In this document: piece after piece, positions 5,730 through 28,466 of the stretch
Numbering within the stretch: position 1 is the first letter of the stretch
Layout: each line of letters starts with the position of its first letter
Origin: Planctopirus limnophila DSM 3776
GTDB taxonomy: Bacteria; Planctomycetota; Planctomycetia; Planctomycetales; Planctomycetaceae
Direction of reading: 5' to 3'
Assembly: GCF_000092105.1 (NCBI RefSeq)
Contig: NC_014148.1
Coordinates: 510,001-542,000 of the forward strand
Length of the DNA stretch: 32,000 nt
Position numbers and translations under genes: made by a program
Notes under the pieces: generated by a model
Told to the model about the DNA's origin: nothing
Seen by the model: the letters and a program-made list of their open reading frames with translations, nothing else
The model's database searches: none

Positions 5730-5808
5730 GGCCGCTTGGAGTGCTGTCGTACTACCCGTAAGCTGAGGCCGAGCTCAATAGATTGTATTGCACGCAGTGC
5801 GAAAGAAG

Positions 5809-5832
5809 TTCGGCGCTGCTTTCGGCGCCGAA
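5809..5832 (-). terminator. Hairpin immediately downstream of the second GspE gene (candidate intrinsic terminator)
   Basis: Perfect 8-bp GC-rich stem: TTCGGCGC (5809-5816) pairs with GCGCCGAA (5825-5832), 8-nt loop. Starts 15 nt after the stop at 5847. On the minus strand it is followed by ACUUCUUUC, which is only moderately U-rich. Confidence 0.45.
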
Positions 5833-5846
5833 AACCTAACTTCCGC

Positions 5847-11965: not shown

Positions 11966-12442
11966 TTAGGGGCCTGTTGAGTCGTTGCTCTCATCCTGGT
12001 GTAATAGATGTCTCATCCATTGGAGATTAGCTCGGAACTCCTCCTGATTACTGGCGAGTGGTTCAATGGCACGCTGTAATCTCATCACAGCCCACGCCAA
12101 TGTTGTGACTGCGATGATCACACCCATGGCGGCTGTGCAAGCTAGAGACGCTTCTTGGGATAAGCCGACAGTCGTTTTCAGCCAGGCAGCTATCGCCATC
12201 AGTGCGATGGGTAAACTTCCCAGGAGTAGTGCACTACCTAGTGAAAACAGTCCCAGTGCCAGTTGCGATCTCTTCCAGAACTCAACAATGTCCATCTGGA
12301 AAAGTTGTAGTTGAAGATCGGCCAGTTTGAGACACTCGTGAACGATGGTGATGAGTGTCGGTGGCTGCTCATTGTTTCTGAAATTGCCGCGGCTGGCAGG
12401 TACCGGCTCGCGTTCATTCATCGCGATCTTTTCTGAATCCAT
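11966..12442 (-). CDS. YqjE-like / holin-X family (PF07332-like) two-TM membrane protein
   Basis: 158 aa with two long hydrophobic helices (LALGLFSLGSALLLGSLPIALMAIAAW and ACTAAMGVIIAVTTLAWAV). The alternative start at 12421 gives an ATGA overlap with the upstream stop. Confidence 0.6.
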   Translation of the reverse strand: MDSEKIAMNEREPVPASRGNFRNNEQPPTLITIVHECLKLADLQLQLFQMDIVEFWKRSQLALGLFSLGSALLLGSLPIALMAIAAWLKTTVGLSQEASLACTAAMGVIIAVTTLAWAVMRLQRAIEPLASNQEEFRANLQWMRHLLHQDESNDSTGP

Positions 12443-12714
12443 CCCCAGGTTGCTCCCATAGTCGCAGCGATCAAGAGGCTCATGGCCGCATTCTGCGCAA
12501 TCCAGCGATTCGCCACATCCCAGGCATCAACAGGTCTCTGTAAGCGACCGTTGTCGATCGTCCTTACGAGAAGCTTATTCTCAGTGAATCCCTCGGTAAC
12601 CCGTAATGCCTGAGTCGGATTCTCTCGTACTCTCATTTCCGATAGCACCCCATGATGTTGTGAAGAATTAGAATGGCTGCAGACAGGCCCTCGGTCAAAG
12701 CGATCTGCGATCAT
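12418..12714 (-). CDS. Hypothetical tail-anchored membrane protein (DUF883-like C-terminus)
   Basis: ORF-track entry 12418..12717 begins at a GTG. The ATG at 12714-12712 overlaps the upstream TGA by 1 nt (TGATG). C-terminus WIAQNAAMSLLIAATMGATWGWIQKRSR. Confidence 0.5.
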   Translation of the reverse strand: MIADRFDRGPVCSHSNSSQHHGVLSEMRVRENPTQALRVTEGFTENKLLVRTIDNGRLQRPVDAWDVANRWIAQNAAMSLLIAATMGATWGWIQKRSR

Positions 12715-13220
12715 CACCCATGGTAGAGGTGAAGGTTGTTTTCCGGTATTGGCGTATTTCGCGAATGGATATCATGAGTGCCGGGAGCATTGAACGTATC
12801 TGATGATGGATGCTCAGTCGCTGTTTGAACAGAGTTAATCAAACGATCAATTTGAGAAACACCATAGTTGATTGCACTGCGTAGGAGAAATTGGCTCGCA
12901 ATCGTCACTCCCGTCTGCCACAAAGTTGGTACAGCAGGTGACTGGCTGATCGGCTCATTGAACTGCTGTCGCTGAAGTTGCTTGACGATTTCCCGTCGCG
13001 TTGCCTCATCGATTTCTACCTGCACAGCAGGCGTTTTCCTCGGGATCAATAGATAACCGGCTGCCGCTGCAATTCCCACACTCAGGAGAGGGTGCTGGCT
13101 GACCTGATACTTCCAGTCCAGCCAGCGGTGGGCCTGAGCGCTCCACTCGCTGGAATGCTGATCAAGTTGTCGCCTCAACCGCCGCATCTTGAATCGAATT
13201 CTCTCTCGATCATCCATCAT
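12714..13220 (-). CDS. YqjK-like hypothetical membrane protein
   Basis: 168 aa. The N-terminal basic coiled segment DRERIRFKMRRLRRQLDQHSSEWSAQ followed by the TM HPLLSVGIAAAAGYLLIP recalls E. coli YqjK. First gene of the overlapping small-protein operon. Confidence 0.5.
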   Translation of the reverse strand: MMDDRERIRFKMRRLRRQLDQHSSEWSAQAHRWLDWKYQVSQHPLLSVGIAAAAGYLLIPRKTPAVQVEIDEATRREIVKQLQRQQFNEPISQSPAVPTLWQTGVTIASQFLLRSAINYGVSQIDRLINSVQTATEHPSSDTFNAPGTHDIHSRNTPIPENNLHLYHG

Positions 13221-13252
13221 ATGTCTTTCGGCGGTGAGGCTTTTTATTGAAG

Positions 13253-13281
13253 TATATAAGTAGCGTTTATAATAGCTACAA
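13253..13281 (-). promoter_or_regulatory. Candidate sigma70-type promoter for the yqjK-like operon
   Basis: Minus strand reads TTGTAG (13281-13276), a 17-nt spacer, then TATATA (13258-13253). This lies 32 nt upstream of the ATG at 13220, in an AT-rich 77-bp intergenic region. Consensus rules for this phylum are uncertain. Confidence 0.3.
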
Positions 13282-13297
13282 GATCGGGAACTTGTTA

Positions 13298-13723
13298 TCA
13301 GGCTCGGTCAGAACGTAGCAGCAGCGTGACGACGACTCCTGCCAGTAGTCCCACACCAAAGGCTGTCGTAATCGACTCGAGTGGACGCGATGCAACCATC
13401 TTGTGTGCTTCCTGCATCCCCGATTCAATCCCGCTCTCAATCGATCCCAATCCCTTGCCAGCGGCATGGGCAGCTGTCTGGGCATATTCACGAACTGTTT
13501 GTCCTGCATTGCCCAGGAAGTTCTGTCCGTTTTTCACCGCCCCTTGAACAAACTGCTCCAGTTGACGACGTGATTCTCCAGTCTTGCTTTCGAGCAGACC
13601 GATCAATTGCTCAGTATTCCCCTGGGCCTGCTGAAGTTCATCATCACTGATTTGGCCCCAGCGTTCCCGAATCTGACCTTTAAGGTGTGTCCACTGTCCT
13701 TGGATTTCTTCACGTGTAATCAT
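13298..13723 (-). CDS. CsbD-like general stress protein fused to a DUF883-like C-terminal membrane anchor
   Basis: 141 aa. The N-terminus EEIQGQWTHLKGQIRERWGQISDDELQQAQGNTEQLIGLL is a typical CsbD domain. The C-terminus ASRPLESITTAFGVGLLAGVVVTLLLRSDRA is a tail anchor. Confidence 0.82.
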   Translation of the reverse strand: MITREEIQGQWTHLKGQIRERWGQISDDELQQAQGNTEQLIGLLESKTGESRRQLEQFVQGAVKNGQNFLGNAGQTVREYAQTAAHAAGKGLGSIESGIESGMQEAHKMVASRPLESITTAFGVGLLAGVVVTLLLRSDRA

Positions 13724-13772
13724 GCTGATCGATTCCTAAACAAAAGTTCACTGTGTTGAGCGAGCGTCCCGT

Positions 13773-13803
13773 ACTAGTGATCTGATCCGATCAGAACACT
13801 AGT
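13773..13803. repeat. 15-bp inverted repeat (1 mismatch, 1-nt spacer) between the DUF1328 and csbD-like genes
   Basis: ACTAGTGATCTGATC (13773-13787), C, GATCAGAACACTAGT (13789-13803). Could be a terminator hairpin for the upstream gene or an operator for the downstream one. Confidence 0.5.
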
Positions 13804-13826
13804 CATCTTATTTATAGAGTGTCGAT

Positions 13827-13997
13827 TTATATCGAGGGGCGTCGTACTCCGCCCATAATCAGGCTCAATAAGAACAATATGATAAATACCACGAATAACA
13901 GTTTCGCAATCCAGGCTGCTGTACCAGCAATCCCGCCAAATCCCAAGACGCCGGCAATGATTGCCACAATCAAAAATGTCAGTGCCCAGCTCAGCAT
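13827..13997 (-). CDS. DUF1328 (YtjA-like) small membrane protein
   Basis: Within ORF 13827..14135, the internal ATG at 13997 is preceded by GGAGAGCATC. It gives the 56-aa [53 protein letters not shown], the characteristic DUF1328 sequence and length. Confidence 0.82.
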
Positions 13998-14549
13998 GAT
14001 GCTCTCCAATCTTCTGAATGCGTCATTTCGAAAAGTGTGAGACCTCGCCTGGCTTTCACAAAGCATTGGCAGCCTGATGTTCACACGCTTAAGAAATGAC
14101 TTTAGGAAATGGTTCGATTCGCAGTCGTAACTCAAAAAATTGTGTTGACTGATGAGCCCTGCAAAGCACGGGTCGTGCCAAACGCTCGAAAGTCACCAAT
14201 CGACTCGCGAATTCCTGTTTTTGACCCCGATCGATGGCGGGTCACCGCCCAACTGGTTGCCAATCGACCAGTTGGCAGTCGAAATCTTCTCATTTCCTTG
14301 GCCGCGGAGGTGCGGTCTTTATCAAGAAGATGAATCCCATGCGGCGAGCTGACTTAAAGGGTTATCTCCATTTCTCAGCCTCACGTGTGACAGTGCACTA
14401 AAAACATCTCTCAAAAAAGCTCCGGGGAAATGGGTGGCTTTCGACAGTTGCGGCCATACGGCATGCATCCCGGCCTCTACGAATACCAGGATTTGACAGC
14501 GCTGTAAGTGCCATGCTTGCGGCTCCGAGCAAGCATGCGTGACAGATTC

Positions 14550-16313: not shown

Positions 16314-16493
16314 GACAAACTCGGTTAAGACAAATCGAATCATATTTTCAAATCGGTGTATTTCGATGGGTTGACCGCGGCGGTATACTCAGGTTTCCAA
16401 GCAGGTTGTCAAAATGCCGACAGGAAGTTCGTCGTGTCAGCATTTGACATCCATTCCCTCCCACCCGAATTCCCACCGAGCGGTGTTTCCTTT

Positions 16494-17153
16494 ATGACGA
16501 CCAAACCCAGCGTGGCGTCTGAGTCTGAGGGATCACATCTCTCACCTCCTGCTCCAGCAGAGGCGATCGTTTCGCAGACATCAACCGATTTAGCGCCCTC
16601 GCGACGCGACGCTGTCGCAGCCATGCTCGCCTGTGGATCGTTTCTGGCTGCTGTCGCCATCCCGGTCTCTGCCGCAGTCGGCCTGACTCTCGATCCTCTC
16701 CTCAGAAAGTCCGGTAGCACTGCGGATTCATCTCCAGGAGGCAACCCGGCAGCAGAACTCGCCAGTGGATTTTTGCCAATCATCAGGTTTGACGAACTTC
16801 CTGAAGATGGAACTCCTGTCAAAAGTGTCGTGCGGATTGATGTCCGCGATGCCTGGCAGGTTTTTCCTGATCAGCCAGTCGGAACCATCTACCTGAGAAG
16901 ATTTCCAGATCGAACCGTCGTGGTCTTCAGCGATATCTGTCCGCATCTGGGTTGCAAAGTCGATTACGAAGCCGATCAAAGCCGGTTTTTCTGCCCCTGT
17001 CACTCCAGTGCCTTTGCGCTCGATGGCCAGGCCATGAATAAAGTCTCGCCCCGGCCGCTGGATCAATTGGAAGCACGCATTGATCCCTCCGGAATGGTCT
17101 GGGTCAAGTATCAGGAATTTCGAACCGGGATCCCGGAAAAAGTCGTTGTTTGA
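16494..17153 (+). CDS. Rieske [2Fe-2S] subunit of a cytochrome bc-type complex
   Basis: Cluster-binding boxes CPHLGCKV and CPCHSSAF. Tat-like SRRDAV motif followed by a TM helix. The ORF opens at 16356, but the ATG at 16494 (MTTKPS) is the more likely start. The cytochrome b gene follows directly. Confidence 0.88.
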   Translation: MTTKPSVASESEGSHLSPPAPAEAIVSQTSTDLAPSRRDAVAAMLACGSFLAAVAIPVSAAVGLTLDPLLRKSGSTADSSPGGNPAAELASGFLPIIRFDELPEDGTPVKSVVRIDVRDAWQVFPDQPVGTIYLRRFPDRTVVVFSDICPHLGCKVDYEADQSRFFCPCHSSAFALDGQAMNKVSPRPLDQLEARIDPSGMVWVKYQEFRTGIPEKVVV

Positions 17154-17252
17154 CAGCCCACAACAGACCTCGAACTCGACTCCATCTCATCAACCTTGAA
17201 GTGTCAGTTCGGCGTACAGCAGGTTCTCGCTGGCATTGAGGAATGCGGCAAT

Positions 17253-19085
17253 ATGCATCGAGTGAGTCATTGGTTAGAAGCACGCACCGGATTGATCACC
17301 TGGTTTCGAGAGCTGGCAAACGCTCCCGTAGCGGGTGGCCCGCGCTGGCGTTACGCCTGGGGTTCTGTGCTGGTTGTGCTCTTTATCACTCAACTCGTCA
17401 CTGGCCTCGCCATGGCGGGCACATATTCGCCAGGCCGCCTGTCTTCGTGGGAGAGCACATACTACATCCAGCATCAATTGCATTGGGGCTGGCTTGTCCG
17501 CGGAATTCACCATTATGCCGCCCAGGCCATGGTCGTCGCTCTGGCTTTACAGGTGCTGCAGATTGTCTGGGATCGCTGGTATCTGGCTCCGCGTGAATTG
17601 AGCTTCTGGGCCACGATTGCAGGCGGGCTCTGTATTTTGGGATTGTCGCATACTGGCTATCAGCTCCCTGGTGACCAGCGGGCTCATGCCGCCACCAGCA
17701 TTTTTCTGAACATCATGTCTTCAGCCCCCGTGGCCGGTCCTTATTTGCAGGAACTGGTGCAGGGGAGCAGTCGTTACGGAAATCTCACCTTATCGCGGCT
17801 CTATGTTCTGCATGTAGGCTTACTTCCACTCGCTTACCTGGGGGTATTGTGCCTGCAAACCCTTTTGTGGCGAGCCGAAGCCAGACGAAACCGGCAGGAC
17901 GATGTCCCGCTCAACGCGACTCGATTCTGGCCCGGGCAAGCACTTCGTAATGGAATCTTTTCGTTGCTGGCTGTCGTGGCTGTTGTCGGTTTGACTTTGA
18001 TACAACCGGCTGAACTGGGAGCCCCCATGAACCCTGCCGAGGCGTTTTCTGCTGCCCGGCCGGAATGGTACTTTCTCTTTCTGTTCCGCTTCCTGAAGTT
18101 CGAATTCGTTCAACAACTGGGCGGCCTGGTGTTCGGTGCCATTTACCTGCCCACACTCATTGGCCTGGTCATCCTGATCATGCCCTGGACGGGACGTTCC
18201 CGTTGGGGTCACAAGGCGAATGTCGCCTTCCTGCTGCTCCTTTTAGCAGGTGTGGGTTATCTCACTGTCACCACTTTGCGAGAAGATGCTCTCAATGTCG
18301 ATCATCAACTCGCGCTGCACCACAGCGAGCAACTCGCCCAACGAACAGTTGATCTTGCTTCGCAGACCGGTATTCCAGCCAGTGGTGCGGTCGCTTTGCT
18401 GGCTAACGATCCACTCACGCAAGGGCCACGGCTATTTCAGAAGAACTGTGCCGCTTGTCATCACCACGAAGCTGTCGCGGCAAGCCATGCAGCTCATCCT
18501 CCCCAATTTTCGGCGGCGGATTTGAGTCATTTCGGCTCACGCGAATGGATGAAAGCCATCCTGATCGATTACGCCACTGTTCTGGCTCCGCTCAAAAATC
18601 ACTCCGATGCCACCGTCGCAGCCCGGTTTCTCGAAGGCGATATGGCCAGCTGGTCCAGTGACAACCGCGATCTGTTGTTGGCTCCAGAAAATGCCACCAG
18701 CCTGGCGGCACTGCTCGAATTCATGGCGCAGCAGTCCGGCCGGAAAGATCGGGGGACCATTGATGAGAAACTGGCGCTGCAAGGTCGTGAAGTCTTTGCC
18801 ACGGGCAAGCTCGCCAGTGGAAGTCTGTCATCCGCCTGCATCGATTGCCATGCCATGCATGTTCGCGGGGAAGACAAGCCTCTTGCCGAAAACTCCGGGA
18901 CAGGAGCACCCACACTCACAGGCTATGGCGGAAGCCAATGGCTCACGCAATTCCTGAAAGCACCTGGTAGCGACGATTACTTTGGTGCGAAAAACGCCAT
19001 GCCCGCATTCGACAAGTTACCGCCACGAGAACTCGAAATGCTCGTGCAATGGATGACGGGCGATTACTGGCTACCGGCAAGATAA
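17253..19085 (+). CDS. Cytochrome b (b6 + subunit IV-like) fused to a C-terminal dihaem cytochrome c domain
   Basis: N-terminal multi-TM cytochrome b with His ligands (RGIHHYAAQ, LHVGLLP) and the Qo-site PEWYFLF motif. The C-terminal soluble part has two CxxCH haem-c sites (CAACH, CIDCH). The ORF opens at 17196. The Met at 17253 (MHRVSHWLEARTG) is the typical cytochrome b N-terminus. Confidence 0.9.
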   Translation: MHRVSHWLEARTGLITWFRELANAPVAGGPRWRYAWGSVLVVLFITQLVTGLAMAGTYSPGRLSSWESTYYIQHQLHWGWLVRGIHHYAAQAMVVALALQVLQIVWDRWYLAPRELSFWATIAGGLCILGLSHTGYQLPGDQRAHAATSIFLNIMSSAPVAGPYLQELVQGSSRYGNLTLSRLYVLHVGLLPLAYLGVLCLQTLLWRAEARRNRQDDVPLNATRFWPGQALRNGIFSLLAVVAVVGLTLIQPAELGAPMNPAEAFSAARPEWYFLFLFRFLKFEFVQQLGGLVFGAIYLPTLIGLVILIMPWTGRSRWGHKANVAFLLLLLAGVGYLTVTTLREDALNVDHQLALHHSEQLAQRTVDLASQTGIPASGAVALLANDPLTQGPRLFQKNCAACHHHEAVAASHAAHPPQFSAADLSHFGSREWMKAILIDYATVLAPLKNHSDATVAARFLEGDMASWSSDNRDLLLAPENATSLAALLEFMAQQSGRKDRGTIDEKLALQGREVFATGKLASGSLSSACIDCHAMHVRGEDKPLAENSGTGAPTLTGYGGSQWLTQFLKAPGSDDYFGAKNAMPAFDKLPPRELEMLVQWMTGDYWLPAR

Positions 19086-19102
19086 GCAGCTCTCGCGTTC
19101 AC

Positions 19103-20323
19103 CTAATGATGCGTGCTCAGCTTAAAGATCGGCAGCAGCATCCCCAGGGCAATTGTGCCAATTACCAGGCCCATTACAGCGACCATAATGGGCTCGATGA
19201 GGCTGGTGGCCGATTTAATCGAGACGGCCACCTCGCGATCATAATGATCACTCAACTTGCCCAGCACAGTTCCCAATTGCCCCGTCTGCTCTCCCGCAGC
19301 AATCATCTGCACGACCGATTTGGGAAAGACAGGGTTCGTCGCCATGATCTGCGCGATCGACTGACCAGAGGTCACATGCAAGGCCACATCTTCCATCGCA
19401 TCCTGAAAGATGCGGTTTCCAGCCACTTTGGCAGCAAGTTCGAGTGCAGGCAGTACAGGCACACCGGCCGAGACTGTTGCCGAAAGTGTTCTTGCAATCC
19501 GAGCGAGAATGGTTTTACGAACCAGTGGCCCCAGAATAGGCAATTGCAGCATCAGGCGGTCGCGAAGACGTTGACCCCATTCCTTTGAGAGCAAATAAGC
19601 ATTCGCCGCCACCAGGGCCACGACACCAAGGATCCACGCCCACCAGTAACCTGTCAGCGAATTCGAAACTGTCAGCAGAATGCGTGTCGCTGCTGGCAAT
19701 TCAATCCCCCGGCCAGCGAACATCGGAGCAATTTTTGGGAAGACATACGTCAGCAGAAAAATACAGGCTCCGACACACATCAGCAGCATGGCGGCAGGGT
19801 ACATCATCGCCCCCTGTACTCTTTGCCTCGTTTCGGATTCTTGCTGAAGCTGTTCCGCCAGCCGACTGAGAATTGGCCCCAGATGACCTGTCGCTTCACC
19901 GGCTTTGACAAGATTGACGTACCGTGCATCAAAGCTTCGCGGGAACTCACTTAAAGCCGTCGAAAAGTCGTCTCCTGATTTCACACGTTCTTCGATGGTC
20001 GTCAGCATCTGTTTTAGTGCGGGCGAAACCGCTTGTGAGGCCAGTCCTTCCAGAGCCACAGAAAGTGCCACGCCGGCATCGACGACAACGGCCAGTTGGC
20101 TCGTCATCGAAACAATATCTGCCTGCCTGGGTTTACGTGTCAACCAGGGCTTCAATTGAAGAGAGACTGCCGATTCCACCAGTTGGACAGGATACAATCC
20201 ATCCGTTTTGAGCTGACGAACTGCCATCGCCAGCGTTTCAGCTTCCACGCTGCCCGAATGGGTCGTGCCCTGAATATCACGTGCTGTGTAGGTAAACGTG
20301 CTCATTACGGGCACCAGGTCCAT
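19103..20323 (-). CDS. GspF/PilC-family platform protein, second paralog
   Basis: 406 aa with two GspF repeats, ending ALGMLLPIFKL. Directly downstream of the third GspE gene. Confidence 0.92.
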   Translation of the reverse strand: MDLVPVMSTFTYTARDIQGTTHSGSVEAETLAMAVRQLKTDGLYPVQLVESAVSLQLKPWLTRKPRQADIVSMTSQLAVVVDAGVALSVALEGLASQAVSPALKQMLTTIEERVKSGDDFSTALSEFPRSFDARYVNLVKAGEATGHLGPILSRLAEQLQQESETRQRVQGAMMYPAAMLLMCVGACIFLLTYVFPKIAPMFAGRGIELPAATRILLTVSNSLTGYWWAWILGVVALVAANAYLLSKEWGQRLRDRLMLQLPILGPLVRKTILARIARTLSATVSAGVPVLPALELAAKVAGNRIFQDAMEDVALHVTSGQSIAQIMATNPVFPKSVVQMIAAGEQTGQLGTVLGKLSDHYDREVAVSIKSATSLIEPIMVAVMGLVIGTIALGMLLPIFKLSTHH

Positions 20324-20460
20324 TGCAGGCCATCAGAGGAAATCAGTCTCAAACACATCTCATCACCAACGCAGATTTCAGATGAACTTGGCCGATAATC
20401 TCACTTTGCAGTCTCGCTTTGACCAGTCATTAACTTCTTCCCGACATTAACTTCCTGCCA

Positions 20461-22194
20461 TTAGCTTCTCAGCGGTAACCAGCCTTCATCACTCGCCTGA
20501 AAGACTTCTTCAATCGTCGTTAAACCTTCGCGAACTTTGCGGAATCCATCAAAACGAAGTGGCATCATGCCCTGCTTCTGGGCGTAGCTTTTCAGCTCTC
20601 CCAGTGCTGGCGATTGAGCAATCAGATCCCGCATGCCGTCGTCGACCACCAGCAGCTCATGAATCGCGACTCGTCCCGAAAATCCCGTGTTCCGACACTT
20701 CTTGCACCCCACTCCCCGGAAGAATTCCTTAGCTTCCATCCCCATTTTTCCCATGGCCAGTTGCATGGCTTTGGGTGGTTCATATGACTGCTTGCACTTC
20801 GGACAGATGCGCCGGCACAGTCGCTGTGACAGCACCATGTTCAGGCTGGCAGCCAGCAGGTAGCTTTCGATACCCATGTTGATCAGACGTGTTACCGCGG
20901 AGCAGGCATCGTTCGTATGCAGCGTGCTGAATACCAGATGACCCGTCAAAGCTGCCTGAATCCCGATGCGGGCCGTCTCATTATCGCGGATTTCACCCAC
21001 CATGATGATATCCGGATCCTGCCTGAGCAGGCTCCTGAGCACTGCCGCGAACGACAGCCCGATTTTTTCATTCACTTGAAACTGATTGACCATCGGCAAC
21101 TGAAATTCCACCGGGTCTTCCACAGTGCAGACGTTCTTTTCCATCGAAGTCACGGCATTGATGGCCGAGTAGAGCGTCGTACTTTTGCCACTTCCCGTCG
21201 GCCCCGTCACCAGGGCAATTCCATTGGGATGATGAATCTGGGCAATAAATTTCTCCAGAATCTCGGCACTGAATCCCAATTGAGAAAGTGTCAGGTTGAT
21301 CTTCTGACTGTCGAGAATTCGAATGACCACCTTCTCGCCATGCGGCAATGGCAAGGTGCTCACCCGCAGGTCGATCGGTCTCCCTTCCATCAAAACATGA
21401 ATGCGTCCATCCTGAGGCAGGCGACGCTCACTGATGTCGAGGGTCGCCATAATCTTGATGCGCGAAGCAATCGCTGGAGCAATATGTAAAGGCAATTCGA
21501 GTGCCTGATGCAACGCTCCATCCACGCGATAACGGACACGAATCTGGCGTTCAGTCGGTTCGATATGCACATCGCTGGCACCATCCCGCACCGCGCTGAA
21601 GATCACATAATTCACCAGCTTGATAATCGGGCTCTGACCGGCAAGATCAACATCAAACGAAATATCGTCGATCGATTCCTCGATTAATTCGACAGCTTCG
21701 GTGTTCACGTCATCGATAATGTCATCGATCACAAACACTTTGGAGTTCGGCAGGTACATCTGGAATGTCCGCCGTATATCTCGACTGCTCGCTACTGCCA
21801 GTTGAATGTCGCAGCCCGAGATCTGCCGCAATTGATCGATGATAAAAATGTTCGAGGGTTCTGCCGTCGCGACAGTTAATGTCTGGCGAACTTTGAACAA
21901 CGGCAGAATGCAGTTCTTTTCGAGAAACTCCCGAGGCAGCAACTCGACAGCGCGTGGATCAAACAGTCGGCTGTCGAGACGGATGTAAGGAATGCCGCAA
22001 TCATCAGCGACGCATTCGAGTACCTGGTCTTCAGAGCAATAGCCTTGAGCGACGACAATCTCGCCCAGCAGTTGCATCCCCCCACTGCTGTGCTGCTGGG
22101 CTAAAGCTTCATCCAGATGCTCTGCACTGAGATATCCCTTCTGGACAAGCAGATCGCCAAGTCGCGGTTTATTGAGTTGAAGTAAACCAGCCAT
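20461..22194 (-). CDS. GspE/PilB-family ATPase, third paralog, with canonical MshEN c-di-GMP-binding motif
   Basis: 577 aa. [35 protein letters not shown]...CKKC. The N-terminus [24 protein letters not shown] fits RLGxxLVxxGxLxxxxLxxxLxxQ exactly. It is followed by a second copy, [24 protein letters not shown]. Confidence 0.93.
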
Positions 22195-22245
22195 TTCAGT
22201 TGCCGAGCTTTCGAATGAGAGGCCACTTAAGACGTGGAGTCGATT

Positions 22246-22593
22246 TCACGACTGGAAACTTCCGACAGCATCGATCATCGATTCATACAGGTCGAATTCT
22301 TCATCGAGCCTGGTGACATGAAAGATCTTGCGGCCCGTCTCTGTCAGTGCGCAGATTTTGACGTTTCCGCCCTGTTCGCGAAGTCTTTCATGCAGGTCAA
22401 CCAGAGCTGTCAGACCAGCACTGTCCAAGGTTTCGCTGCGATCCATCTGCAACACGACGCTTTTCAGCCCTGCCTGCAGATGCGTCTCGATGGCTTCATG
22501 AAATAATCGTGTCGTTTCTTCGGTCAACTCCTCCGGAGTATGAGCGACCAGCACGTTTCCAAAGGTTTCTGTCGAGACCTGCATATCATTCAC
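22246..22593 (-). CDS. STAS-domain protein (anti-sigma-factor antagonist family, SpoIIAA/RsbV-like)
   Basis: 115 aa. VVLQMDRSETLDSAGLTALVDLHERLREQGGNVKICAL aligns with the SpoIIAA/RsbV core and retains the Ser of the DSxGL motif. Confidence 0.85.
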   Translation of the reverse strand: MNDMQVSTETFGNVLVAHTPEELTEETTRLFHEAIETHLQAGLKSVVLQMDRSETLDSAGLTALVDLHERLREQGGNVKICALTETGRKIFHVTRLDEEFDLYESMIDAVGSFQS

Positions 22594-22643
22594 CGTTCAC
22601 AGGAAGATTCAGCTCTGCATCGAATGGGATCAAGTCAGGCAGG

Positions 22644-23066
22644 TTATGGCCGGAAGTGATTCGTCAGATCCGTAATCTCGACCGAATCGTGTCCACCAGG
22701 ATTCAATAATCGGATCGCTGTCTGCACAACTTCTTTCGGGCTGAAGGGTTTGACGACCAGTGCCGAAACTCCCAGCCGCTCCTGAAGTTCCGCTTCGTCC
22801 ATTTCGTAACCTTTAGCGGTCAGCAGAATGGCTGGCAGATGCCGTGTTGCCTCGCAACTACGGATCTTTTCAATGAGTTGCAGGCCACTCATATGCGGCA
22901 TATTGCAATCAGTGATCACCACATCGGGCTGTTCTTCCAGAATTTTTGACCAGGCAATCCCGCCATGTTCTGCCATCTGCACATCAAACCCCGATTTGCG
23001 GAACTTGAGTGACAAAGGCAACAGCACATGCGGTTCGTCATCACATAACAGGACACGGTAATTCAT
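22644..23066 (-). CDS. Stand-alone response-regulator receiver (CheY-like)
   Basis: 140 aa. Acidic pocket LLCDDE, phosphoacceptor context DVVITDCNMPHMSG, ILLTAKG and K in VVKPF. No output domain. Confidence 0.92.
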   Translation of the reverse strand: MNYRVLLCDDEPHVLLPLSLKFRKSGFDVQMAEHGGIAWSKILEEQPDVVITDCNMPHMSGLQLIEKIRSCEATRHLPAILLTAKGYEMDEAELQERLGVSALVVKPFSPKEVVQTAIRLLNPGGHDSVEITDLTNHFRP

Positions 23067-23133
23067 GATCTTCCCAATTCGCAGTTGTCAGTATCGCAGT
23101 TGAGATGACAGTGCTTCTGATGGCAGCGCTTCT

Positions 23134-24882
23134 TCAGTTATCGAGCAGGACGTGGTCGTTAACACGATGTGTTTTTCGAATGCGATGACCAGCCGGTATG
23201 CTGATCGTAAAGCAGCTTCCTTCACCTTGTTTGGAAGAGACGCTGATGGATCCGTCGTGGATGCTGGAAATGATGTATTTCACAAGTGCCAGGCCTAAAC
23301 CCGTTCCTGCAGCAGCTTTCATATTCTCCGGGACTCGATAAAACCGCTCAAAGAGTCGAGGCAGGCTGGCCGCCGGAATCCCCATGCCGGTATCCCGGAC
23401 TTCAATCAGGACACGATCTTCTTCCAAACGGCTTTTGAGGGAAATCTTCCCGCCGGCTGGGGTGTACTTCACGGCGTTCGATAACAGATTCACGACGGCC
23501 TGGCTGAAGAGGTCTTCATCGACATGGGCGGGGATATAAAGATCACTCAGTAGCGATTCGACGGTCTGCGATTTCGCTGCAGCCTGAGGAGTCACCACAT
23601 CGAGCGCACTCTTGAGCAAGCGGTTGATTTCGACATCTTTTCTCTGAACTCGAATCACACCACTTTCAATCCGTGCCAGATTCAGCATATTGTCGACCAG
23701 CCGGCTCAGGCGATCAACCTGTTCATCGATGAACACCAGAATCTTCTGCTGTTCTTCAGCTTCATCAATCTCGCCATCGCGCAGTAGCTCTGCATAAGCT
23801 TTAATGCTCGACATGGGTGTCTTGAACTCGTGGCAGACCGAAGAGACAAACTCCGCATGCCGGCTGCGATCCTGCACCTCTCGCCCGATATCCTGCAGAA
23901 CCAGCGCGGCCCCCAGCAGGGTGTTTTCGTTCTCTTTGAGAGTATGTGCATGAATTCGATACGTCGTGGTCAGACAGGGAATATCGGCTGTTCTGCGATC
24001 ACTCGCCACTCGCCGCGTCAAAGTCTCCTGCAGCAGCGGCTTCATCCCTTCGAGAATGTCAATCAGCCCCGTCTGTTCTTGAATTTCCCGTGCAAGTTTC
24101 TGGCTGATCTGTTTGTAAAGACTTCTCGCAGATTCATTCTGGTACAGCGCATGCCCATTGACATCGGTCACGACCACTGGTTGTTCCATGTCATCCAAAG
24201 CCATTTCCAGACGGCGGACGTGACGTTTCTGCACTTTGAATCGCGCTTCGACAGTCGCTCGGGCATGCACTGCTTCTGCCGTTCGTTTTTCGGCCTGCTG
24301 TAAGAGATGGTTGGCTTCCGAGATAATGTTTCGAAACAGCACCAGATCTGCTGTCAATTGTGTGCGATTCTCAGGTTGACCAAGCCTCCTGGCGGCATCG
24401 GCTTCGTAGCGGGCGGCAATCATAGCGCTGATCAGCACACCACCCAGACAGAACAAAAAGACGATCAAAGAACTGATGGGCGTGCCAAACAGCAGAATAC
24501 AGAGCAGAACTGCGGTCTGGCCAAAGACAGCCACCGGGATAATCAGCGGCAAAAGAACCGAATAATGGGCCTGAAAAATCCGCCGTTGTGGCGGCTTGCC
24601 GGGCGATGGGCTCGAAGAAGATTGTGGTTCCAGATCGTGCGCCCGAGTTGTTGAACCCTGAGAAGTTGAAGTGCGAGCAGCTTTGTCAGACTTCGATCCT
24701 TCTCTCGTCGAGTGAGGGTCGATTCCCGAAAGCTGTTGACAGAGCTTCGCATTTCGATCTGTCCCCTCTTCCGAGGGAATATCGAACTCGGCCGAGAGGG
24801 CATTGAGCCTGGCATCGAGTGCAGGCAGGTCGCCCCTCATGAGTTGCAGTAGTCGAGTTGAGGATTGTGAACTATTGGACAC
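23134..24882 (-). CDS. Sensor histidine kinase (membrane, PAS-HisKA-HATPase_c)
   Basis: 582 aa. About 105 aa of low-complexity N-terminus, then closely spaced TM helices (ILLPLIIPVAVFG...LFCLGGVLISAMIAA), a coiled coil and a PAS-like segment. H-box VCHEFKTPMSS, N-box LLSNAVKYT, G-boxes DTGMGIP and GTGLGLALV. Confidence 0.92.
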   Translation of the reverse strand: MSNSSQSSTRLLQLMRGDLPALDARLNALSAEFDIPSEEGTDRNAKLCQQLSGIDPHSTREGSKSDKAARTSTSQGSTTRAHDLEPQSSSSPSPGKPPQRRIFQAHYSVLLPLIIPVAVFGQTAVLLCILLFGTPISSLIVFLFCLGGVLISAMIAARYEADAARRLGQPENRTQLTADLVLFRNIISEANHLLQQAEKRTAEAVHARATVEARFKVQKRHVRRLEMALDDMEQPVVVTDVNGHALYQNESARSLYKQISQKLAREIQEQTGLIDILEGMKPLLQETLTRRVASDRRTADIPCLTTTYRIHAHTLKENENTLLGAALVLQDIGREVQDRSRHAEFVSSVCHEFKTPMSSIKAYAELLRDGEIDEAEEQQKILVFIDEQVDRLSRLVDNMLNLARIESGVIRVQRKDVEINRLLKSALDVVTPQAAAKSQTVESLLSDLYIPAHVDEDLFSQAVVNLLSNAVKYTPAGGKISLKSRLEEDRVLIEVRDTGMGIPAASLPRLFERFYRVPENMKAAAGTGLGLALVKYIISSIHDGSISVSSKQGEGSCFTISIPAGHRIRKTHRVNDHVLLDN

Positions 24883-25261
24883 AGTGCTGCCTTATCGCAT
24901 TCTGAGCCGCAGGATGCCGTGCCAGAACTGGTGAGTCGCTTGTGGCAAAACGGCAACAGGCTGGGCCTGCGTGGCAACCGTAGGTCAGGATTTCCACTCA
25001 GTCCAACAAGAACTCGGGACAGCGGGAGAACTATCTCCAACTCCCGGCATCACTGATGGCTCGTGACGAAAATCTCGCCAGAGACAGACCTCGCGAGTCC
25101 GCGACCCGACGAGATCAGTTCAAGATCTTCGCAGGCTCAATTTCCTGGGGATCACTGCGAGTGGCTTCCACAAGTGCATCCTGTAATCGATTCCTCAATG
25201 AAAATCGATACTGACGGAATCAACGCGCCATCCGGAGCAATCGATAGTTCTGAAAGCAATC

Positions 25262-26506
25262 CTACGATTCGCTCGAAGCAGGATCCTGCTGATCATCGTC
25301 CGCATCAACTTGCAAAACCTGGCTGAGAATCTGCCCATCGGCCACCAGAGTTGCCAATCGATCACCCACTTGCACTTGCTTGACGGATTGAATCAGGTCA
25401 CCACCGGGTACTCGTTTGCTGATCGAAAAGCCACGTTCCAGCACTGCCAGTGGACTCAATGCCTGGAGTGCCCGGCCCGCACTCTCCAGTTCTGCATTCA
25501 GGCTGGCCAGTTTTCTTTTCCAGCTTTGCTTAAGGCGAGTTTCGAGATCATCCAACTCCCGCGAGAAACGATGGATCTGTTCCAGTGGCTTCGCCAACGC
25601 TCTTCGCTTCTTCAGTTGCTCAAGTTCTTTGCGACGACTGTTCGTCAACGCGACTAGCGAGGAACAGAGCCGATCACGGAGCTGATCGAGATGCTGAACC
25701 CACTCCGCCTTAACCGGAATGACACGCTCGGCAGCTTCACTGGGAGTCAATGCTCTTTGGTCGGCGACCAGATCGGCAATCGTCACATCGGTTTCATGCC
25801 CCACCGCACTGATCACGGGAATCCGGCATTGGGCAATGGCCCTGGCCACAAGCTCTTCATTAAAGGCCCAGAGGTCTTCCAGGCTTCCCCCACCGCGACC
25901 GCAGATCACGACATCCACATCTGGCAGTCGATGGACCATTCCTAAAGCCGCTGCAATTTTTGGGGCTGCCTCTGGCCCCTGCACAGGCACGGGAACTACA
26001 ACCACATTCACGCCGGGCCAGCGTCTGAGAAGGATCTGCAGAATGTCATGCACCGCCGCACCGGCAGGACTGGTGATCACGGCAATCCGTTTGGGAAAGC
26101 GAGGCAGTGGTCGCTTCCTTGCCACATCAAACAAACCCTCCGCCGCGAGCTTGGCATGCAATTGACGAAATGCCAGTTCAAGGGGCCCAATCCCCTGAGG
26201 CGTCAGCCGCTCCACCATCAACTGGTATTGCCCACGTGGTGCATAGACTTCGACACCTCCAATCGCTTCGACGGCTAAACCATCGCGGAGGTCGAACTTC
26301 AACTTGATGGCCGATGATCGCCACATCACCGCCTTGATCTGCGAGGCTTCATCCTTGAGTGTGAAGTAAACATGCCCGGAACTGGCTCGGGTTAACCCTG
26401 AGATCTCTCCAGTGACGATTACTCGCGGAAATGCCATTTCCACGATTTCCCGGAGACAATCCGAGAGCTGCGAAACTGTCAATTTGGGCAAGTCGTTTCC
26501 CGGCAA
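25262..26506 (-). CDS. xseA: Exodeoxyribonuclease VII large subunit
   Basis: 414 aa. N-terminal OB fold (VIVTGEISGLTRASSGHVYFTLKD), catalytic region IAVITSPAGAAVHDIL...CGRGGGSLEDLWAFN...VISAVGHETDVTIADLVAD, and a C-terminal coiled coil. Confidence 0.93.
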   Translation of the reverse strand: MPGNDLPKLTVSQLSDCLREIVEMAFPRVIVTGEISGLTRASSGHVYFTLKDEASQIKAVMWRSSAIKLKFDLRDGLAVEAIGGVEVYAPRGQYQLMVERLTPQGIGPLELAFRQLHAKLAAEGLFDVARKRPLPRFPKRIAVITSPAGAAVHDILQILLRRWPGVNVVVVPVPVQGPEAAPKIAAALGMVHRLPDVDVVICGRGGGSLEDLWAFNEELVARAIAQCRIPVISAVGHETDVTIADLVADQRALTPSEAAERVIPVKAEWVQHLDQLRDRLCSSLVALTNSRRKELEQLKKRRALAKPLEQIHRFSRELDDLETRLKQSWKRKLASLNAELESAGRALQALSPLAVLERGFSISKRVPGGDLIQSVKQVQVGDRLATLVADGQILSQVLQVDADDDQQDPASSES

Positions 26507-26618
26507 ACCAGATTCTCCGAATGCATTTCATAGAAAGCGAGTAGACCACCGAAGCGGTATTCGGTGGTCTACAATTCAACGATCATTGTTAAAAGAGCTT
26601 ATCGGGAACAGCACCTGG

Positions 26619-28466
26619 TTAGAAGCCTGGCGGCAGTTCCGTTGTGGTCTGAGAGACCAGCGATGTTGACGGTGCCACAACCACTGGCTGGCCGGTTCTG
26701 GTGGGAGCCGGTGGAACATGCATGTTTGTTGCTGAGGTTTCGAGATTTGTGGCCGGTGACGAGGGCTGTTGGATCACTCCCGGCAACACCAGCGTTTCCG
26801 TGGGTGTCGAAAGTACCTGAATTGGCGTGCCACTGCGGTTGGATGTTGTCGCGGGAGCAGTCGTCGTGTGCGATGCACTCACCACGGTTGGTTCCTGCGG
26901 GGGAGGTGTAAAGGCTGGAACCTGAGCTGGTGCTGACGTTTCTACAGGCGAAACTTCTTTACGACTGGTGGCATTCGTCATCGGCAATGGATGATAGCTG
27001 ACAGGGAAGATCGTTTCCGATGTTCCGGGATTTGGCACCGAACTGACCATGGGCGAACGAACAGCCGCTGGTTGCTGCTGGTACAATGGTGGCGTAAATG
27101 TCGTCGCATGGTTCTGTGTTGCGAAATTCTGTGTCGCCGGTGCCATCATGGCCTGGGCGCCGTATGTAGTTTGTGGCTGCGAAGCTTGTGGAATCACCAT
27201 GGCCGTCATGCCATTCGCTGGTACTCCATAGTTTTGAGGCCACTGATAAACCACCTGCATCGGTTGAGTCTGAACGGGCTGTGCCTGAGTCACAACGCCC
27301 TGTGGAAGCATGGCAGGCTGAACTCCCGCTGGCTGTGACATCACCGGCTGGTAAGAAACCTGGTATTGCTGGGGAACCTGTTGCTGAGCAACCTGTCCCT
27401 GCGGCACCAAGAAGGCGACTGGCTGTGGAAGAATCACATACCGATATCCTGGGACCGGTGATGGAGCCTGTGCAGGTGCCTGCCACTGCACCATATTCCC
27501 TTGTGGCATCGCCGAAACCTGGCTGGCCATGGCGAATTGAGCAGGTGCATTCATCGCAGGTGAAGCTGCAATCGGTGTCGGCTGGCGAGCCGGAATGGGC
27601 TGCAATGCTGGTCGATGCTGAGCCACCTGATTGATAGCCGGTTGGTTCTGGGCCTGCTGCTGGACAGCCTGATGGGCGTTTTGCGGGGCCCGCCGGGCGA
27701 TTGAAGTTGGTGCAGCAGTCGGAGAGACAGGGGTTTTCTGGCCGGACGCGATTGGGTGCAGAACTGAAGGGACTTTGGGCATCGACTGAGCAAGCTGTGT
27801 AGCAGGCATACTTCCCGGATGAGCCTGGTTGGCCGTCGCCATGAGTTTCGCCTGCACATCCGGCTGATGCACATTCGCCGCCAATGATTGTTGATACATC
27901 TGGCTGGCCATAGCCACATTCCCCTGAGCCTGATGGATCTCGCCCAGTTGCGCTAGAACTTTGGGCTCGTTGGGCTGGACTCGCAGTGCCTGCTGCAATG
28001 TCTGCTGAGCTGCACTCAGATCACCTGTCTTCTGTTGAGCCGAGGCCAGGCCGACATAAGCATCAGGATTGTAAGGCTGTGAACCCACCCAGGTCTGCAT
28101 CACTCCGACAGCTTCGGAAGAGCGTCCCGTATCGATCATCAGACGTGAGAGCGCTGCGTAAGTCGGTTCGTGCGAAGGATCAATGGTTAAATTGTGCTGC
28201 AGAATCTGTTCAGCCTCAGCCACTTGTCCAAGTCGCGATTGGGCCACAGCCAGATTGAAACGATAGTCAGGATTGAGCGGGTCGTCATAGACGGCTCTGG
28301 CAAACTCATTGCGAGCCATTTCAAACTCACCGCGCTGGTAGTACGCCGCACCAGAACTGTTCATCACCCAGCCACTCATGGGGGCACAACCAACAGTAGA
28401 TCCAATTGCCCAGGCCAGACTGGCAGCACAGGCAAAACGACGAATGTTGACAAGACGAACAGGCAT
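26619..28466 (-). CDS. TPR-repeat putative lipoprotein with a long Q/P/A/S/T-rich low-complexity C-terminal region
   Basis: 615 aa. Signal peptide ending STVGC (lipobox-like). About 200 aa of TPR repeats (AYYQRGEFEMARNEFARAV..., YVGLASAQQKTGDLSAAQQTLQQAL...). Then about 400 aa of biased composition. Shadow ORFs on both strands fit a low-complexity coding region. Confidence 0.85.
   Translation of the reverse strand: MPVRLVNIRRFACAASLAWAIGSTVGCAPMSGWVMNSSGAAYYQRGEFEMARNEFARAVYDDPLNPDYRFNLAVAQSRLGQVAEAEQILQHNLTIDPSHEPTYAALSRLMIDTGRSSEAVGVMQTWVGSQPYNPDAYVGLASAQQKTGDLSAAQQTLQQALRVQPNEPKVLAQLGEIHQAQGNVAMASQMYQQSLAANVHQPDVQAKLMATANQAHPGSMPATQLAQSMPKVPSVLHPIASGQKTPVSPTAAPTSIARRAPQNAHQAVQQQAQNQPAINQVAQHRPALQPIPARQPTPIAASPAMNAPAQFAMASQVSAMPQGNMVQWQAPAQAPSPVPGYRYVILPQPVAFLVPQGQVAQQQVPQQYQVSYQPVMSQPAGVQPAMLPQGVVTQAQPVQTQPMQVVYQWPQNYGVPANGMTAMVIPQASQPQTTYGAQAMMAPATQNFATQNHATTFTPPLYQQQPAAVRSPMVSSVPNPGTSETIFPVSYHPLPMTNATSRKEVSPVETSAPAQVPAFTPPPQEPTVVSASHTTTAPATTSNRSGTPIQVLSTPTETLVLPGVIQQPSSPATNLETSATNMHVPPAPTRTGQPVVVAPSTSLVSQTTTELPPGF

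Follow-up and report, generated by a model that had tools for sequence, protein, structure and literature searches.

A planctomycetal gene cassette links a two-component pair and a STAS gene to a type IV pilus-type motor pair

Results

The window analysed here is a 32,000-nt stretch of the Planctopirus limnophila DSM 3776 genome. A check of its open reading frames confirmed all five genes of the cluster under study on the minus strand, where they and the features associated with them are arranged as follows:

24883–25261, minus strand: intergenic region 5' of the kinase gene (379 nt), candidate promoter site
23134–24882, minus strand: histidine kinase (Pfam HisKA, 9e-19; HATPase_c, 6e-28)
22644–23066, minus strand: stand-alone receiver, 140 aa (Pfam Response_reg as sole domain, 2e-21)
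22246–22593, minus strand: single-domain STAS protein of the SpoIIAA/RsbV type (PF01740, 1e-16)
22420–22422, minus strand: codon for the conserved STAS serine in the DSAGL motif, read directly from the sequence
20461–22194, minus strand: PilB/GspE-type ATPase, 577 aa (T2SSE, 1e-137; MshEN, 3.5e-19)
22093–22164, minus strand: 24-residue MshE-type c-di-GMP motif, ATPase aa 11–34 (strict regular expression and NF053729)
19103–20323, minus strand: PilC/GspF-type inner-membrane platform, 406 aa (T2SSF in two repeats, 3e-56)

From kinase to platform, the gaps between successive genes measure 67, 50, 51 and 137 nt which, together with the Pfam domains, bears out the description in an earlier note of five co-directional minus-strand genes lying 50–137 nt apart. 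The same note had the cluster ending convergently against cytochrome bc genes, and we find 17 nt between the end of the platform gene and the convergent stop of a cytochrome b/c fusion gene (17196–19085). Upstream, the neighbours are XseA, a TPR protein and a divergent PMT_2 gene. From their spacing and shared strand, we infer that the five Planctopirus genes are co-transcribed. The most likely location for the operon promoter is the 24883–25261 region, which is the sole long gap on the strand of the cluster. When positions 18800–26800 were scanned for sigma-70-like and terminator-like sites, none fell in the intergenic regions of the five genes; all the sites found were inside coding regions, at counts no higher than expected from shuffled sequence. 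tRNA and Rfam scans of the whole window gave no matches.

The first 100 or so residues of the kinase form a low-complexity extension, followed by a transmembrane hairpin (approximately residues 102–160), a PAS-like region (approximately residues 220–335), HisKA and HATPase_c, and hydropathy analysis indicates that a periplasmic domain is absent. It had been called a membrane PAS histidine kinase. The hairpin and the two catalytic domains fit the membrane and histidine kinase parts of that name, while the PAS domain has no Pfam match in the window kinase and is PAS-like on the basis of alignment to PhoR/PnpS/WalK-type models, which extends over aa 208–563, and of PAS matches in orthologs. The residues expected of a two-component pair are in place. 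In the kinase, the H-box histidine (H351), E352, P356, the N-box (N469) and the DxGxG and GxGxG G-boxes are invariant across 71 ortholog sequences. In the receiver, the acidic pocket and phospho-Asp (D9, D10 and D53) are invariant across 63 orthologs, and the Thr and Lys (T83 and K106) are each kept in 62 of them. Most receiver orthologs are 127–180 aa in length. Since Pfam identifies Response_reg alone in the window receiver, with no DNA-binding or enzymatic output domain, and the STAS protein has none either, both are expected to act through protein–protein contact.

In the family alignment, which has 18 invariant columns, homologues of the STAS protein start at the equivalent of its second methionine. 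This makes 22584 the probable true start and would give a protein of 112 aa. An exact look-up of the window protein in the contig collection returned no record. The serine of the DSAGL motif, Ser55 in the 112-aa form, is shared by 28 of 29 family members, in keeping with the earlier observation that a phosphorylatable serine context (LDSAGL) is retained. In a structural model (pLDDT 82.6), which matches SpoIIAA and RsbV with TM-scores of 0.85–0.90 and has PDB 1th8 and 6m36 among its top fold matches, Ser55 sits at the N-terminus of helix 2 (residues 55–70), at the position equivalent to SpoIIAA Ser58, the phosphoserine of SpoIIAA/RsbV. This single-domain architecture, with a conserved serine starting helix 2, is that of a partner-switch STAS protein, and the conservation of the serine suggests that a serine kinase and phosphatase are encoded outside the cluster.

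These features invite a conventional explanation, which we regard as unlikely: that the STAS protein works as an ordinary anti-anti-sigma factor, with the sigma factor, PP2C phosphatase and RsbW-type kinase/anti-sigma factor of its switch encoded elsewhere in the genome, that its place in a pilus operon serves only co-expression, and that it acts on transcription (of pilin genes, for instance) rather than on the motor. Besides the fold and the nearly invariant serine, it is favoured by the existence of further STAS paralogs in Planctopirus, as PDB 3t6o is a Planctomyces limnophilus STAS protein only 20% identical to the one in the window. Against it, an RsbW/SpoIIAB-type kinase, a PP2C phosphatase and a sigma factor are all absent from the window ORFs, as had been claimed, and RsbW/HATPase_c_2-type kinase, PP2C and sigma factor genes are likewise absent from six Pfam-annotated neighbourhoods in relatives. 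The sole small-ORF candidate for such a kinase, a 134-aa ORF right after the STAS gene in one relative (locus L047), was rejected as it encodes a VanZ-family protein.

In the ATPase, the T2SSE match (PF00437) spans aa 185–565, and both a GPTGSGKT-type Walker A motif and a C-terminal tetracysteine CKKC are present in the translation. Its N-terminus is a predicted c-di-GMP receptor domain of the MshE type. Residues 11–34 fit the strict MshE pattern, RLGxx(L/V/I)(L/V/I)xxG(L/V/I)(L/V/I)xxxxLxxxLxxQ, with tyrosine, which we allowed there, at motif position 11, and the N-terminus scores 55.9 bits against NCBIfam NF053729 (cutoff 38), so that the MshEN motif reported from the sequence alone holds. 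The strict motif recurs in 46 of the 59 STAS-linked ATPases of relatives. Several Gimesia-type ATPases carry a Gly-to-Glu change within it, and a cyclase gene is present at their loci nonetheless, a point against the reading favoured below.

To see whether a STAS gene adjoins an ATPase and platform elsewhere, gene neighbourhoods were compared starting from the STAS side, where 130 relatives were found in species-representative genomes, the best 80 of which are all from Planctomycetota. A recurring order emerged in Planctomycetales and Pirellulales: histidine kinase, receiver, (GAF-GGDEF cyclase), STAS, PilB, (PilT), PilC, in which the genes in brackets are variable. PilB lies immediately 3' of STAS at 63 of the 76 loci for which 1.5 kb or more of downstream sequence is available, mostly at a spacing of less than 100 nt, and at many loci the stop and start codons overlap by 1–4 nt. 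Upstream of STAS, the kinase is found at 62 of 64 loci and the receiver at 62 of 73. All 59 STAS-linked ATPases are nearest to the cassette ATPase among the three ATPases of the window (59–100% identity), and all 41 cassette-linked platforms are nearer to the cassette platform than to the other of the two in the window. When PilB orthologs were chosen independently of STAS, in a search that listed those of at least 63% identity only, the three on long contigs, including that of the cultured Stratiformator vulcanicus, all had kinase, receiver, GGDEF and STAS genes upstream. The order is thus strongly conserved across two orders of Planctomycetia, the opposite of a lack of synteny, so the proposed functional link passes the synteny test. 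Seen from both the STAS and the PilB side, the association of the ATPase/platform pair with genes for a kinase, a receiver and a STAS protein is no accident, although gene order by itself does not point to the protein that STAS contacts. The overlap of stop and start codons between STAS and PilB, kept over order-level divergence, exceeds what co-expression would usually need, and this too counts against the anti-anti-sigma reading.

The c-di-GMP input that the earlier note had proposed is supported by the motif and reinforced by the cyclase gene that intervenes between receiver and STAS in many relatives. At 33 of 73 loci a GAF-GGDEF gene lies directly 5' of STAS, at a spacing of 10–12 nt in Gimesia-type loci, and 37 of 41 in-cluster cyclases have an intact GGEEF. 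The Planctopirus window contains no GGDEF gene. Conversely, in a clade of 114-aa STAS proteins (about ten loci, for example L041, L042, L047 and L050), the kinase, receiver, GGDEF and STAS genes are intact, while PilB and PilC are absent up to 10 kb downstream. This implies that the STAS gene is tied most closely in evolution to the signalling genes and not to the ATPase, and the retention of STAS without PilB can also be counted in favour of a conventional anti-anti-sigma role.

It further raises the idea that the STAS protein belongs to a signalling triad, in which it would bind the GHKL ATPase domain of the kinase, the receiver or the cyclase and tune the phosphorelay or c-di-GMP output, with PilB reached only through c-di-GMP or the receiver. 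Kinase, receiver and STAS are the invariant core of three architectures (with PilB; with cyclase and PilB; with cyclase and without PilB), GGDEF and STAS in Gimesia-type loci are those 10–12 nt apart, HsbA and HsbD provide a documented STAS–cyclase pair, and SpoIIAA and RsbV dock on GHKL-fold kinases, as in the 1th8 and 6m36 fold matches. However, the cyclase-less loci of Planctopirus, Schlesneria-type genomes and Pirellulales keep STAS directly 5' of PilB, and we know of no case in which a STAS protein regulates a classical histidine kinase. Overall, we consider this arrangement improbable.

The earlier note held the ATPase/platform pair to be structurally orphan, having seen no pilin with it. 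For the five-gene cluster the absence is real, as no pilin, prepilin peptidase, PilM/N/O/P or secretin gene lies within it. It does not extend to the window, which has a prepilin with a GFTLIEL motif and an N_methyl match at 3–422 and a second PilC/PilB/PilT/PilB set at 1–7544. In Gimesia-type genomes and Pirellulales, moreover, the cassette forms the 3' end of a full locus with a GspH-like minor pilin, PilM, PilN, PilO, a possible PilP and a secretin. Of the 47 loci whose upstream flank reaches 9 kb or more, 22 have alignment genes and a secretin gene, the latter within 10 kb, ahead of the cassette, and in many relatives a PilT-like retraction ATPase lies inside the cassette itself. PilM/N/O and a PilT-like retraction ATPase are hallmarks of type IVa pili, and their presence in relatives argues for a type IVa pilus rather than a type II secretion system.

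That the ATPase and platform might instead drive a type II secretion-like endopilus, making the cassette a regulator of protein secretion rather than of a surface pilus, seems to us very unlikely indeed. The sequence models barely discriminate: GspE/GspF models score nearly as high on the window pair as PilB/PilC models, with the ATPase reaching 606 bits against TIGR02538 PilB (cutoff 675.65) and 594 bits against TIGR02533 GspE (cutoff 630.25). The GspH-like gene could be a minor pseudopilin, there is a weak T2SSB match upstream of the cassette in relatives, and the second PilB/PilT/PilC/pilin set in the window could be the true type IVa pilus of Planctopirus. What stands against it is that relatives carry PilM_2, PilN and PilO, not GspL/GspM, in many cases with the in-cassette PilT-like ATPase.

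Three pilQ-like genes have been reported in P. limnophila (PMC11958385). Together with the complete loci of relatives and the prepilin and second motor set in the window, they mean that the description of the pair as orphan does not hold, and the isolation of the Planctopirus cassette looks like a derived split from a complete pilus locus, as the two-order distribution suggests. A search with the PilM of a relative gave no match named Planctopirus, most matches carrying no name. The TPR lipoprotein-like gene of the window (26619–28466) was considered as a counterpart of the secretin–kinase TPR gene of Gimesia-type loci and set aside, as the similarity is only generic (28% over 180 aa, pairwise E 2e-7).

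Discussion

Taken together, we think it fairly probable that the cassette represents the motor and its regulation within a planctomycetal type IVa pilus locus, and that it exerts post-translational control over the extension motor. There is a precedent in pilus extension driven by c-di-GMP binding to MshE (PMC7096442). As the membrane kinase has no periplasmic domain, its input would probably come from the membrane or from the PAS-like region in the cytoplasm. The kinase would then phosphorylate the stand-alone receiver, and receiver and STAS protein, each working by protein–protein contact, would target the PilB extension ATPase, switching its activity or its docking to PilC on or off. A second gate would be c-di-GMP at the MshEN N-terminus, with the messenger made locally in relatives by the in-cluster cyclase. 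The STAS protein, whose predicted partner is the PilB ATPase, would serve as an adaptor or switch between the phosphorelay, plus the cyclase where present, and the ATPase, and a kinase encoded at another locus may phosphorylate its serine. The Planctopirus cassette stands apart from the alignment and secretin genes and has neither a cyclase nor a dedicated PilT.

Parts of this arrangement are familiar from other systems. The MSHA pilus of Vibrio cholerae shares an extension ATPase with an N-terminal 24-residue c-di-GMP motif, although MshE and the window ATPase are family-level relatives only. The MSHA locus also runs in the order alignment genes, secretin, TPR gene, ATPase and platform, like Gimesia-type loci; to our knowledge, its stretch from the secretin/TPR genes to the ATPase contains no gene for a kinase, a receiver, a cyclase or a STAS protein. 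The Moorella thermoacetica stressosome has a GAF-GGDEF cyclase as its downstream partner. It requires RsbR, RsbS, the RsbT kinase and the RsbX phosphatase, all absent here, and has no link to a pilus motor; what it shares with the cassette is STAS proteins tied to second-messenger signalling, as in the title of PDB 3ztb, one of the fold matches. In Nostoc punctiforme HmpU/HmpV/HmpW, the STAS protein HmpV is described as a partner-switch output acting on an undefined non-sigma effector, but the system has its own serine kinase and PP2C phosphatase, is not beside pilB and includes no two-component pair.

In the HptB-HsbR-HsbA-HsbD pathway of Pseudomonas aeruginosa, a phosphorelay feeds into the single-domain STAS protein HsbA. 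HsbA binds HsbD, a diguanylate cyclase, in a pathway that modulates motility (PMC5085249), and relatives of the window have a GGDEF gene directly 5' of STAS. HsbR, however, combines a receiver with a PP2C phosphatase and a serine kinase that act on HsbA, both of which the window receiver lacks; Hpt, PP2C and HATPase_c_2 proteins are absent from the window ORFs; and the Hsb genes adjoin flagellar genes rather than pilB/pilC, while the window itself has no cyclase. In the PilZ-FimX and PdeK-PdeR systems of Xanthomonas and Pseudomonas, PilB is positioned or activated with the help of a two-component system and a c-di-GMP sensor, and PilZ, a small protein of about 120 aa, binds to the N-terminal domain of PilB (PMC11656802). 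The folds differ, being PilZ and EAL/GGDEF there and STAS here.

The activation of type IV pilus extension ATPases is an active question. Known cofactors (c-di-GMP, PilZ/FimX, CheY-like proteins and SgmX/MglA) derive from a handful of models among proteobacteria, myxobacteria and cyanobacteria, in a review in which STAS proteins and anti-sigma antagonists do not occur (PMC11656802). A STAS gene beside pilB in two orders of Planctomycetia is a candidate regulator of a different fold. The earlier note did not recognise the coupling of STAS to a GspE/GspF pair as a described module, and our literature search agrees in finding no description of the STAS-linked pilus motor cassette, which points to a new form of pilus-extension control. 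The comparison also corrects the local picture, from an orphan motor to what looks like a fragment split off from a complete pilus locus.

Tentatively, we raise the possibility that the STAS protein represents a new class of direct PilB cofactor, switched by phosphorylation or partner choice without a sigma or anti-sigma factor, and alternating between signalling proteins (phospho-receiver, kinase GHKL domain or cyclase) and the MshEN N-terminus of PilB. Little is understood about surface fibres and attachment in planctomycetes, and the existence of genetic tools for P. limnophila, including pilQ deletions (PMC11958385), makes the hypothesis directly testable. As a regulator of the motor, the STAS protein would give partner-switch proteins an output of a new type. 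If the cofactor proposal is true, the STAS protein would gate the docking of the motor on PilC, two-component, partner-switch and local c-di-GMP signals would meet on one motor, and a whole bacterial class would have recruited partner switching to control an ATPase of the secretion superfamily.

Results

A compact cluster of kinase, receiver, STAS, ATPase and platform genes

All five minus-strand open reading frames described in the earlier note were recovered, with the following Pfam assignments.

23134-24882, minus: histidine kinase, HisKA and HATPase_c
22644-23066, minus: receiver of 140 aa, Response_reg only
22246-22593, minus: STAS protein, STAS
20461-22194, minus: ATPase, T2SSE and MshEN
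19103-20323, minus: platform protein, two T2SSF repeats

The genes are separated by gaps of 67, 50, 51 and 137 nt, and 17 nt remain between the end of the platform gene and the converging stop codon of a plus-strand cytochrome b/c fusion gene. This neighbouring region (16356-19085, plus) encodes a Rieske protein followed by a 629-aa cytochrome b with a fused C-terminal c-type cytochrome domain.

The kinase had been described as a membrane PAS kinase. Its membrane character stood, in the form of two neighbouring hydrophobic segments at about residues 102-160 without a periplasmic domain. Pfam, however, identified no PAS domain in the window kinase; a PAS-like region is suggested only by PAS matches in orthologs and by full-length alignment with models of the PhoR/PnpS/WalK type. 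At its N-terminus the protein is extended by about 100 Ser/Pro-rich residues (24580-24882), read from a presumed GTG start codon, which are absent from most orthologs (480-520 aa, versus 582 aa in Planctopirus). At 25262-28466 (minus), XseA, the exonuclease VII large subunit, is encoded between the kinase gene and that of a 615-aa TPR protein whose N-terminus is lipoprotein-like (…STVGC) and whose long tail is rich in Pro and Gln.

The gene order is conserved among planctomycetes

A search of a large protein collection returned 58 homologs of the STAS protein at 52-99% identity, nearly all of 111-114 aa, and all those with a named source were planctomycetal. Around three divergent members, the gene order was in each case kinase, receiver, (GGDEF), STAS, PilB, (PilT), PilC. 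Scanning species-representative genomes with the STAS family alignment yielded 130 relatives, of which the best 80 all belong to Planctomycetota; these include Planctopirus, Schlesneria, Gimesia and further Planctomycetaceae, together with Pirellulales, Thermogutta and Blastopirellula at 40-47% identity. The window DNA itself is 94-95% identical to that of Planctopirus hydrillae JC280 and of a pond Planctomyces MAG. Open reading frames in the fetched loci were labelled by BLASTP, with the window proteins and references drawn from three loci as the comparison set. The resulting counts, which include a few redundant copies of one contig, were as follows.

Genes around STAS in the fetched loci (denominators are loci with enough flank)
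PilB as the next gene after STAS: 63/76 (at least 1.5 kb downstream)
Kinase upstream of STAS: 62/64
Receiver upstream of STAS: 62/73
GGDEF gene between receiver and STAS: 33/73
PilC within 5 kb of STAS: 39/56
PilT-like gene between PilB and PilC: 16/56
Secretin upstream of STAS: 22/47 (at least 9 kb upstream)

The gap between STAS and PilB is mostly below 100 nt, and in many loci the two genes overlap by 1 or 4 nt. The same was true in reverse: when three PilB orthologs on long contigs were picked independently of STAS, one of them from the cultured Stratiformator vulcanicus, all three had kinase, receiver, GGDEF and STAS genes directly upstream. Moreover, each of the 59 linked ATPases is nearest to the cassette ATPase of the window (median 67% identity, versus 43% and 40% for the two paralogs), and each of the 41 linked platforms is nearest to the cassette platform (48%, versus 30% for the other platform in the window). 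Because of this, the linked loci are orthologous cassettes and not repeated chance pairings. The placement of a STAS gene beside a GspE/GspF pair, for which the earlier note had proposed a neighbourhood search, proved to be conserved among planctomycetes.

The signalling unit takes three forms. In Pirellulales, Planctopirus and Schlesneria-type loci, kinase, receiver, STAS, PilB and PilC follow one another; in Gimesia-type loci and others, a cyclase precedes STAS, and PilT may lie between PilB and PilC. In the third form, found in a clade whose STAS protein is 114 aa long (fetched loci L032, L038, L041, L042, L047, L048, L050, L055 and L070), kinase, receiver, GAF-GGDEF cyclase and STAS are followed by unrelated genes, such as VanZ and DUF1501 in L047, and PilB is absent up to 10 kb from STAS in L041, L042, L047, L050 and L055. 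It follows from this clade that the signalling unit can exist apart from the motor genes. The kinase, receiver and STAS genes make up the constant unit, and PilB is its usual, not universal, neighbour.

In many relatives the cassette is part of a type IVa-like pilus locus

The ATPase/platform pair had been noted as looking structurally orphan, a reading that does not hold. In Gimesia-type genomes and Pirellulales, genes for a GspH-like minor pilin, PilM, PilN, PilO, a small protein (possibly PilP), a secretin and sometimes a TPR protein directly precede the cassette; a full locus for a type IVa-like pilus thus has the cassette as its motor end. The TPR gene of Gimesia-type loci lies between secretin and kinase, and its product resembles the window TPR protein in a generic way only. 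In Planctopirus, Schlesneria-type loci and S. vulcanicus, the cassette stands without those upstream pilus genes; since the joined form occurs in both orders, Planctomycetales and Pirellulales, the detached form is most simply taken to be derived. Three pilQ-like genes have been reported elsewhere in the P. limnophila genome (PMC11958385). A search with a relative's PilM did not locate the Planctopirus alignment genes, most matches being without organism names.

A second set of pilus genes lies at the left edge of the window.

3-422, minus: prepilin running off the left edge, GFTLIEL, N_methyl
626-1885, minus: PilC
2038-3771, minus: PilB-like ATPase, KLG variant of the c-di-GMP motif
3912-5033, minus: PilT
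5847-7544, minus: PilB-like ATPase, MshEN domain without the motif

With this set (1-7544), the window holds three extension-type ATPases, only 40-43% identical to one another, and two platforms. In the roughly 800 nt that separate PilT from the PilB-like gene upstream of it (5034-5846), no open reading frame has a Pfam match, and the two of about 106-108 aa in this stretch gave no matches. The PilT encoded within relatives' clusters shares only about 40-46% identity with the window PilT and is therefore a paralog; the Planctopirus cassette is without a dedicated retraction ATPase.

Elsewhere in the window, several genes for small proteins of stress or membrane type stand in a row at 11966-14135 (minus).

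11966-12442, minus: Phage_holin_3_6-like protein
12714-13220, minus: 168-aa protein without a match
13298-13723, minus: CsbD-like protein
13827-14135, minus: DUF1328 protein

Scored against NCBIfam, the cassette ATPase reaches 606 bits with PilB and 594 bits with GspE, each under its equivalog cutoff. With pilus genes adjoining many of its orthologs, we consider a secretion machine, rather than a pilus machine, very improbable.

Catalytic and motif residues are largely intact

The c-di-GMP motif noted in the ATPase was confirmed, a 24-residue stretch near its N-terminus fitting the strict form used and the protein scoring 55.9 bits against the NCBIfam MshE-related motif model (cutoff 38 bits). 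This strict form is kept in 46 of the 59 STAS-linked ATPases, while Glu replaces the central Gly in several Gimesia-type cassettes. The PilB N-termini of seven fetched loci (L001, L051, L054, L057, L059, L064 and L075) read RLGDLLVYKEY…, with this Glu, and the same loci encode an intact GGEEF cyclase. In-cluster cyclases of relatives are GAF-GGDEF proteins with GGEEF intact in 37/41; an RxxD site was not detected at the expected place.

The H-box His, the N-box Asn and the two G-boxes do not vary among 71 kinases, nor do D9, D10 and D53 among 63 receivers, of which 62 keep T83 and 62 keep K106. The STAS family alignment has 18 invariant columns, and the phosphorylatable Ser context reported from the window is a family feature, the DSAGL Ser being present in 28/29 members. 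A model built from this alignment (pLDDT 82.6) has SpoIIAA topology, with that Ser located at the N-terminal end of helix 55-70. Superposed on SpoIIAA, on RsbV and on further antagonists, it gives TM values of 0.85-0.90; sequence profiles match the same proteins. The fold search also returned PDB 3t6o, a STAS structure from Planctomyces (Planctopirus) limnophilus only 20% identical to the cassette protein, indicating further STAS paralogs in the genus.

This antagonist-like fold raises the possibility of a conventional partner switch, operating with an unlinked kinase, phosphatase and sigma factor. As the earlier note had observed, none of the window ORFs was identified as an RsbW-type kinase, PP2C phosphatase or sigma factor. 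The six neighbourhoods with a Pfam gene list likewise yielded no Ser kinase, PP2C phosphatase or sigma factor, and we regard such a switch as rather unlikely. The sole other partner-switch-like gene noticed near any cassette is a SpoIIAA-like gene (PF11964) in the S. vulcanicus locus (L087, 3044-3427), about 6.5 kb upstream on the opposite strand and probably unrelated.

Discussion

Taken together, the conserved cassette, its intact catalytic and motif residues and its type IVa pilus context make it probable that this is the motor-plus-control cassette of a planctomycetal type IVa pilus, with kinase, receiver and STAS acting on the PilB motor. The kinase would phosphorylate the receiver. Because neither receiver nor STAS protein has an output domain, both would act by binding other proteins, with the PilB motor as their putative target; c-di-GMP, presumably made locally where the cyclase is present, would be a second gate on the same motor. 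Direct binding of PilB by the STAS protein is a more tentative proposal.

Precedents are partial but real. HsbA is a STAS protein that lies downstream of a phosphorelay and has the cyclase HsbD as a binding partner; this pathway reportedly modulates type IV pili (PMC5085249). The PilB N-terminus is bound by small proteins such as PilZ (PMC11656802). The HsbA case, like the clade in which STAS and cyclase occur without PilB, also bears on an alternative in which the STAS protein acts only on the cyclase or inside the signalling triad; with STAS kept directly before PilB in Planctopirus, Schlesneria-type and Pirellulales loci that have no cyclase, we judge this improbable, slightly more so than a conventional partner switch.

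The earlier suspicion that the module is undescribed agrees with the literature searched, whose coverage is incomplete: we found no description of a STAS-domain protein with PilB and type IV pili, an absence of evidence and not proof, and a single paper, on the Nostoc system, brought together an anti-sigma factor antagonist, the type IV pilus and PilB. A 2024 review of PilB cofactors leaves STAS proteins and anti-sigma antagonists unmentioned (PMC11656802). The family of each component is already known, and so is the control of PilB through c-di-GMP and through two-component proteins; what is new is the conserved coupling of a STAS gene to pilB and the architecture of the cassette. As genetic tools now exist for P. 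limnophila (PMC11958385), the idea of a STAS protein acting with PilB is directly testable in this organism.
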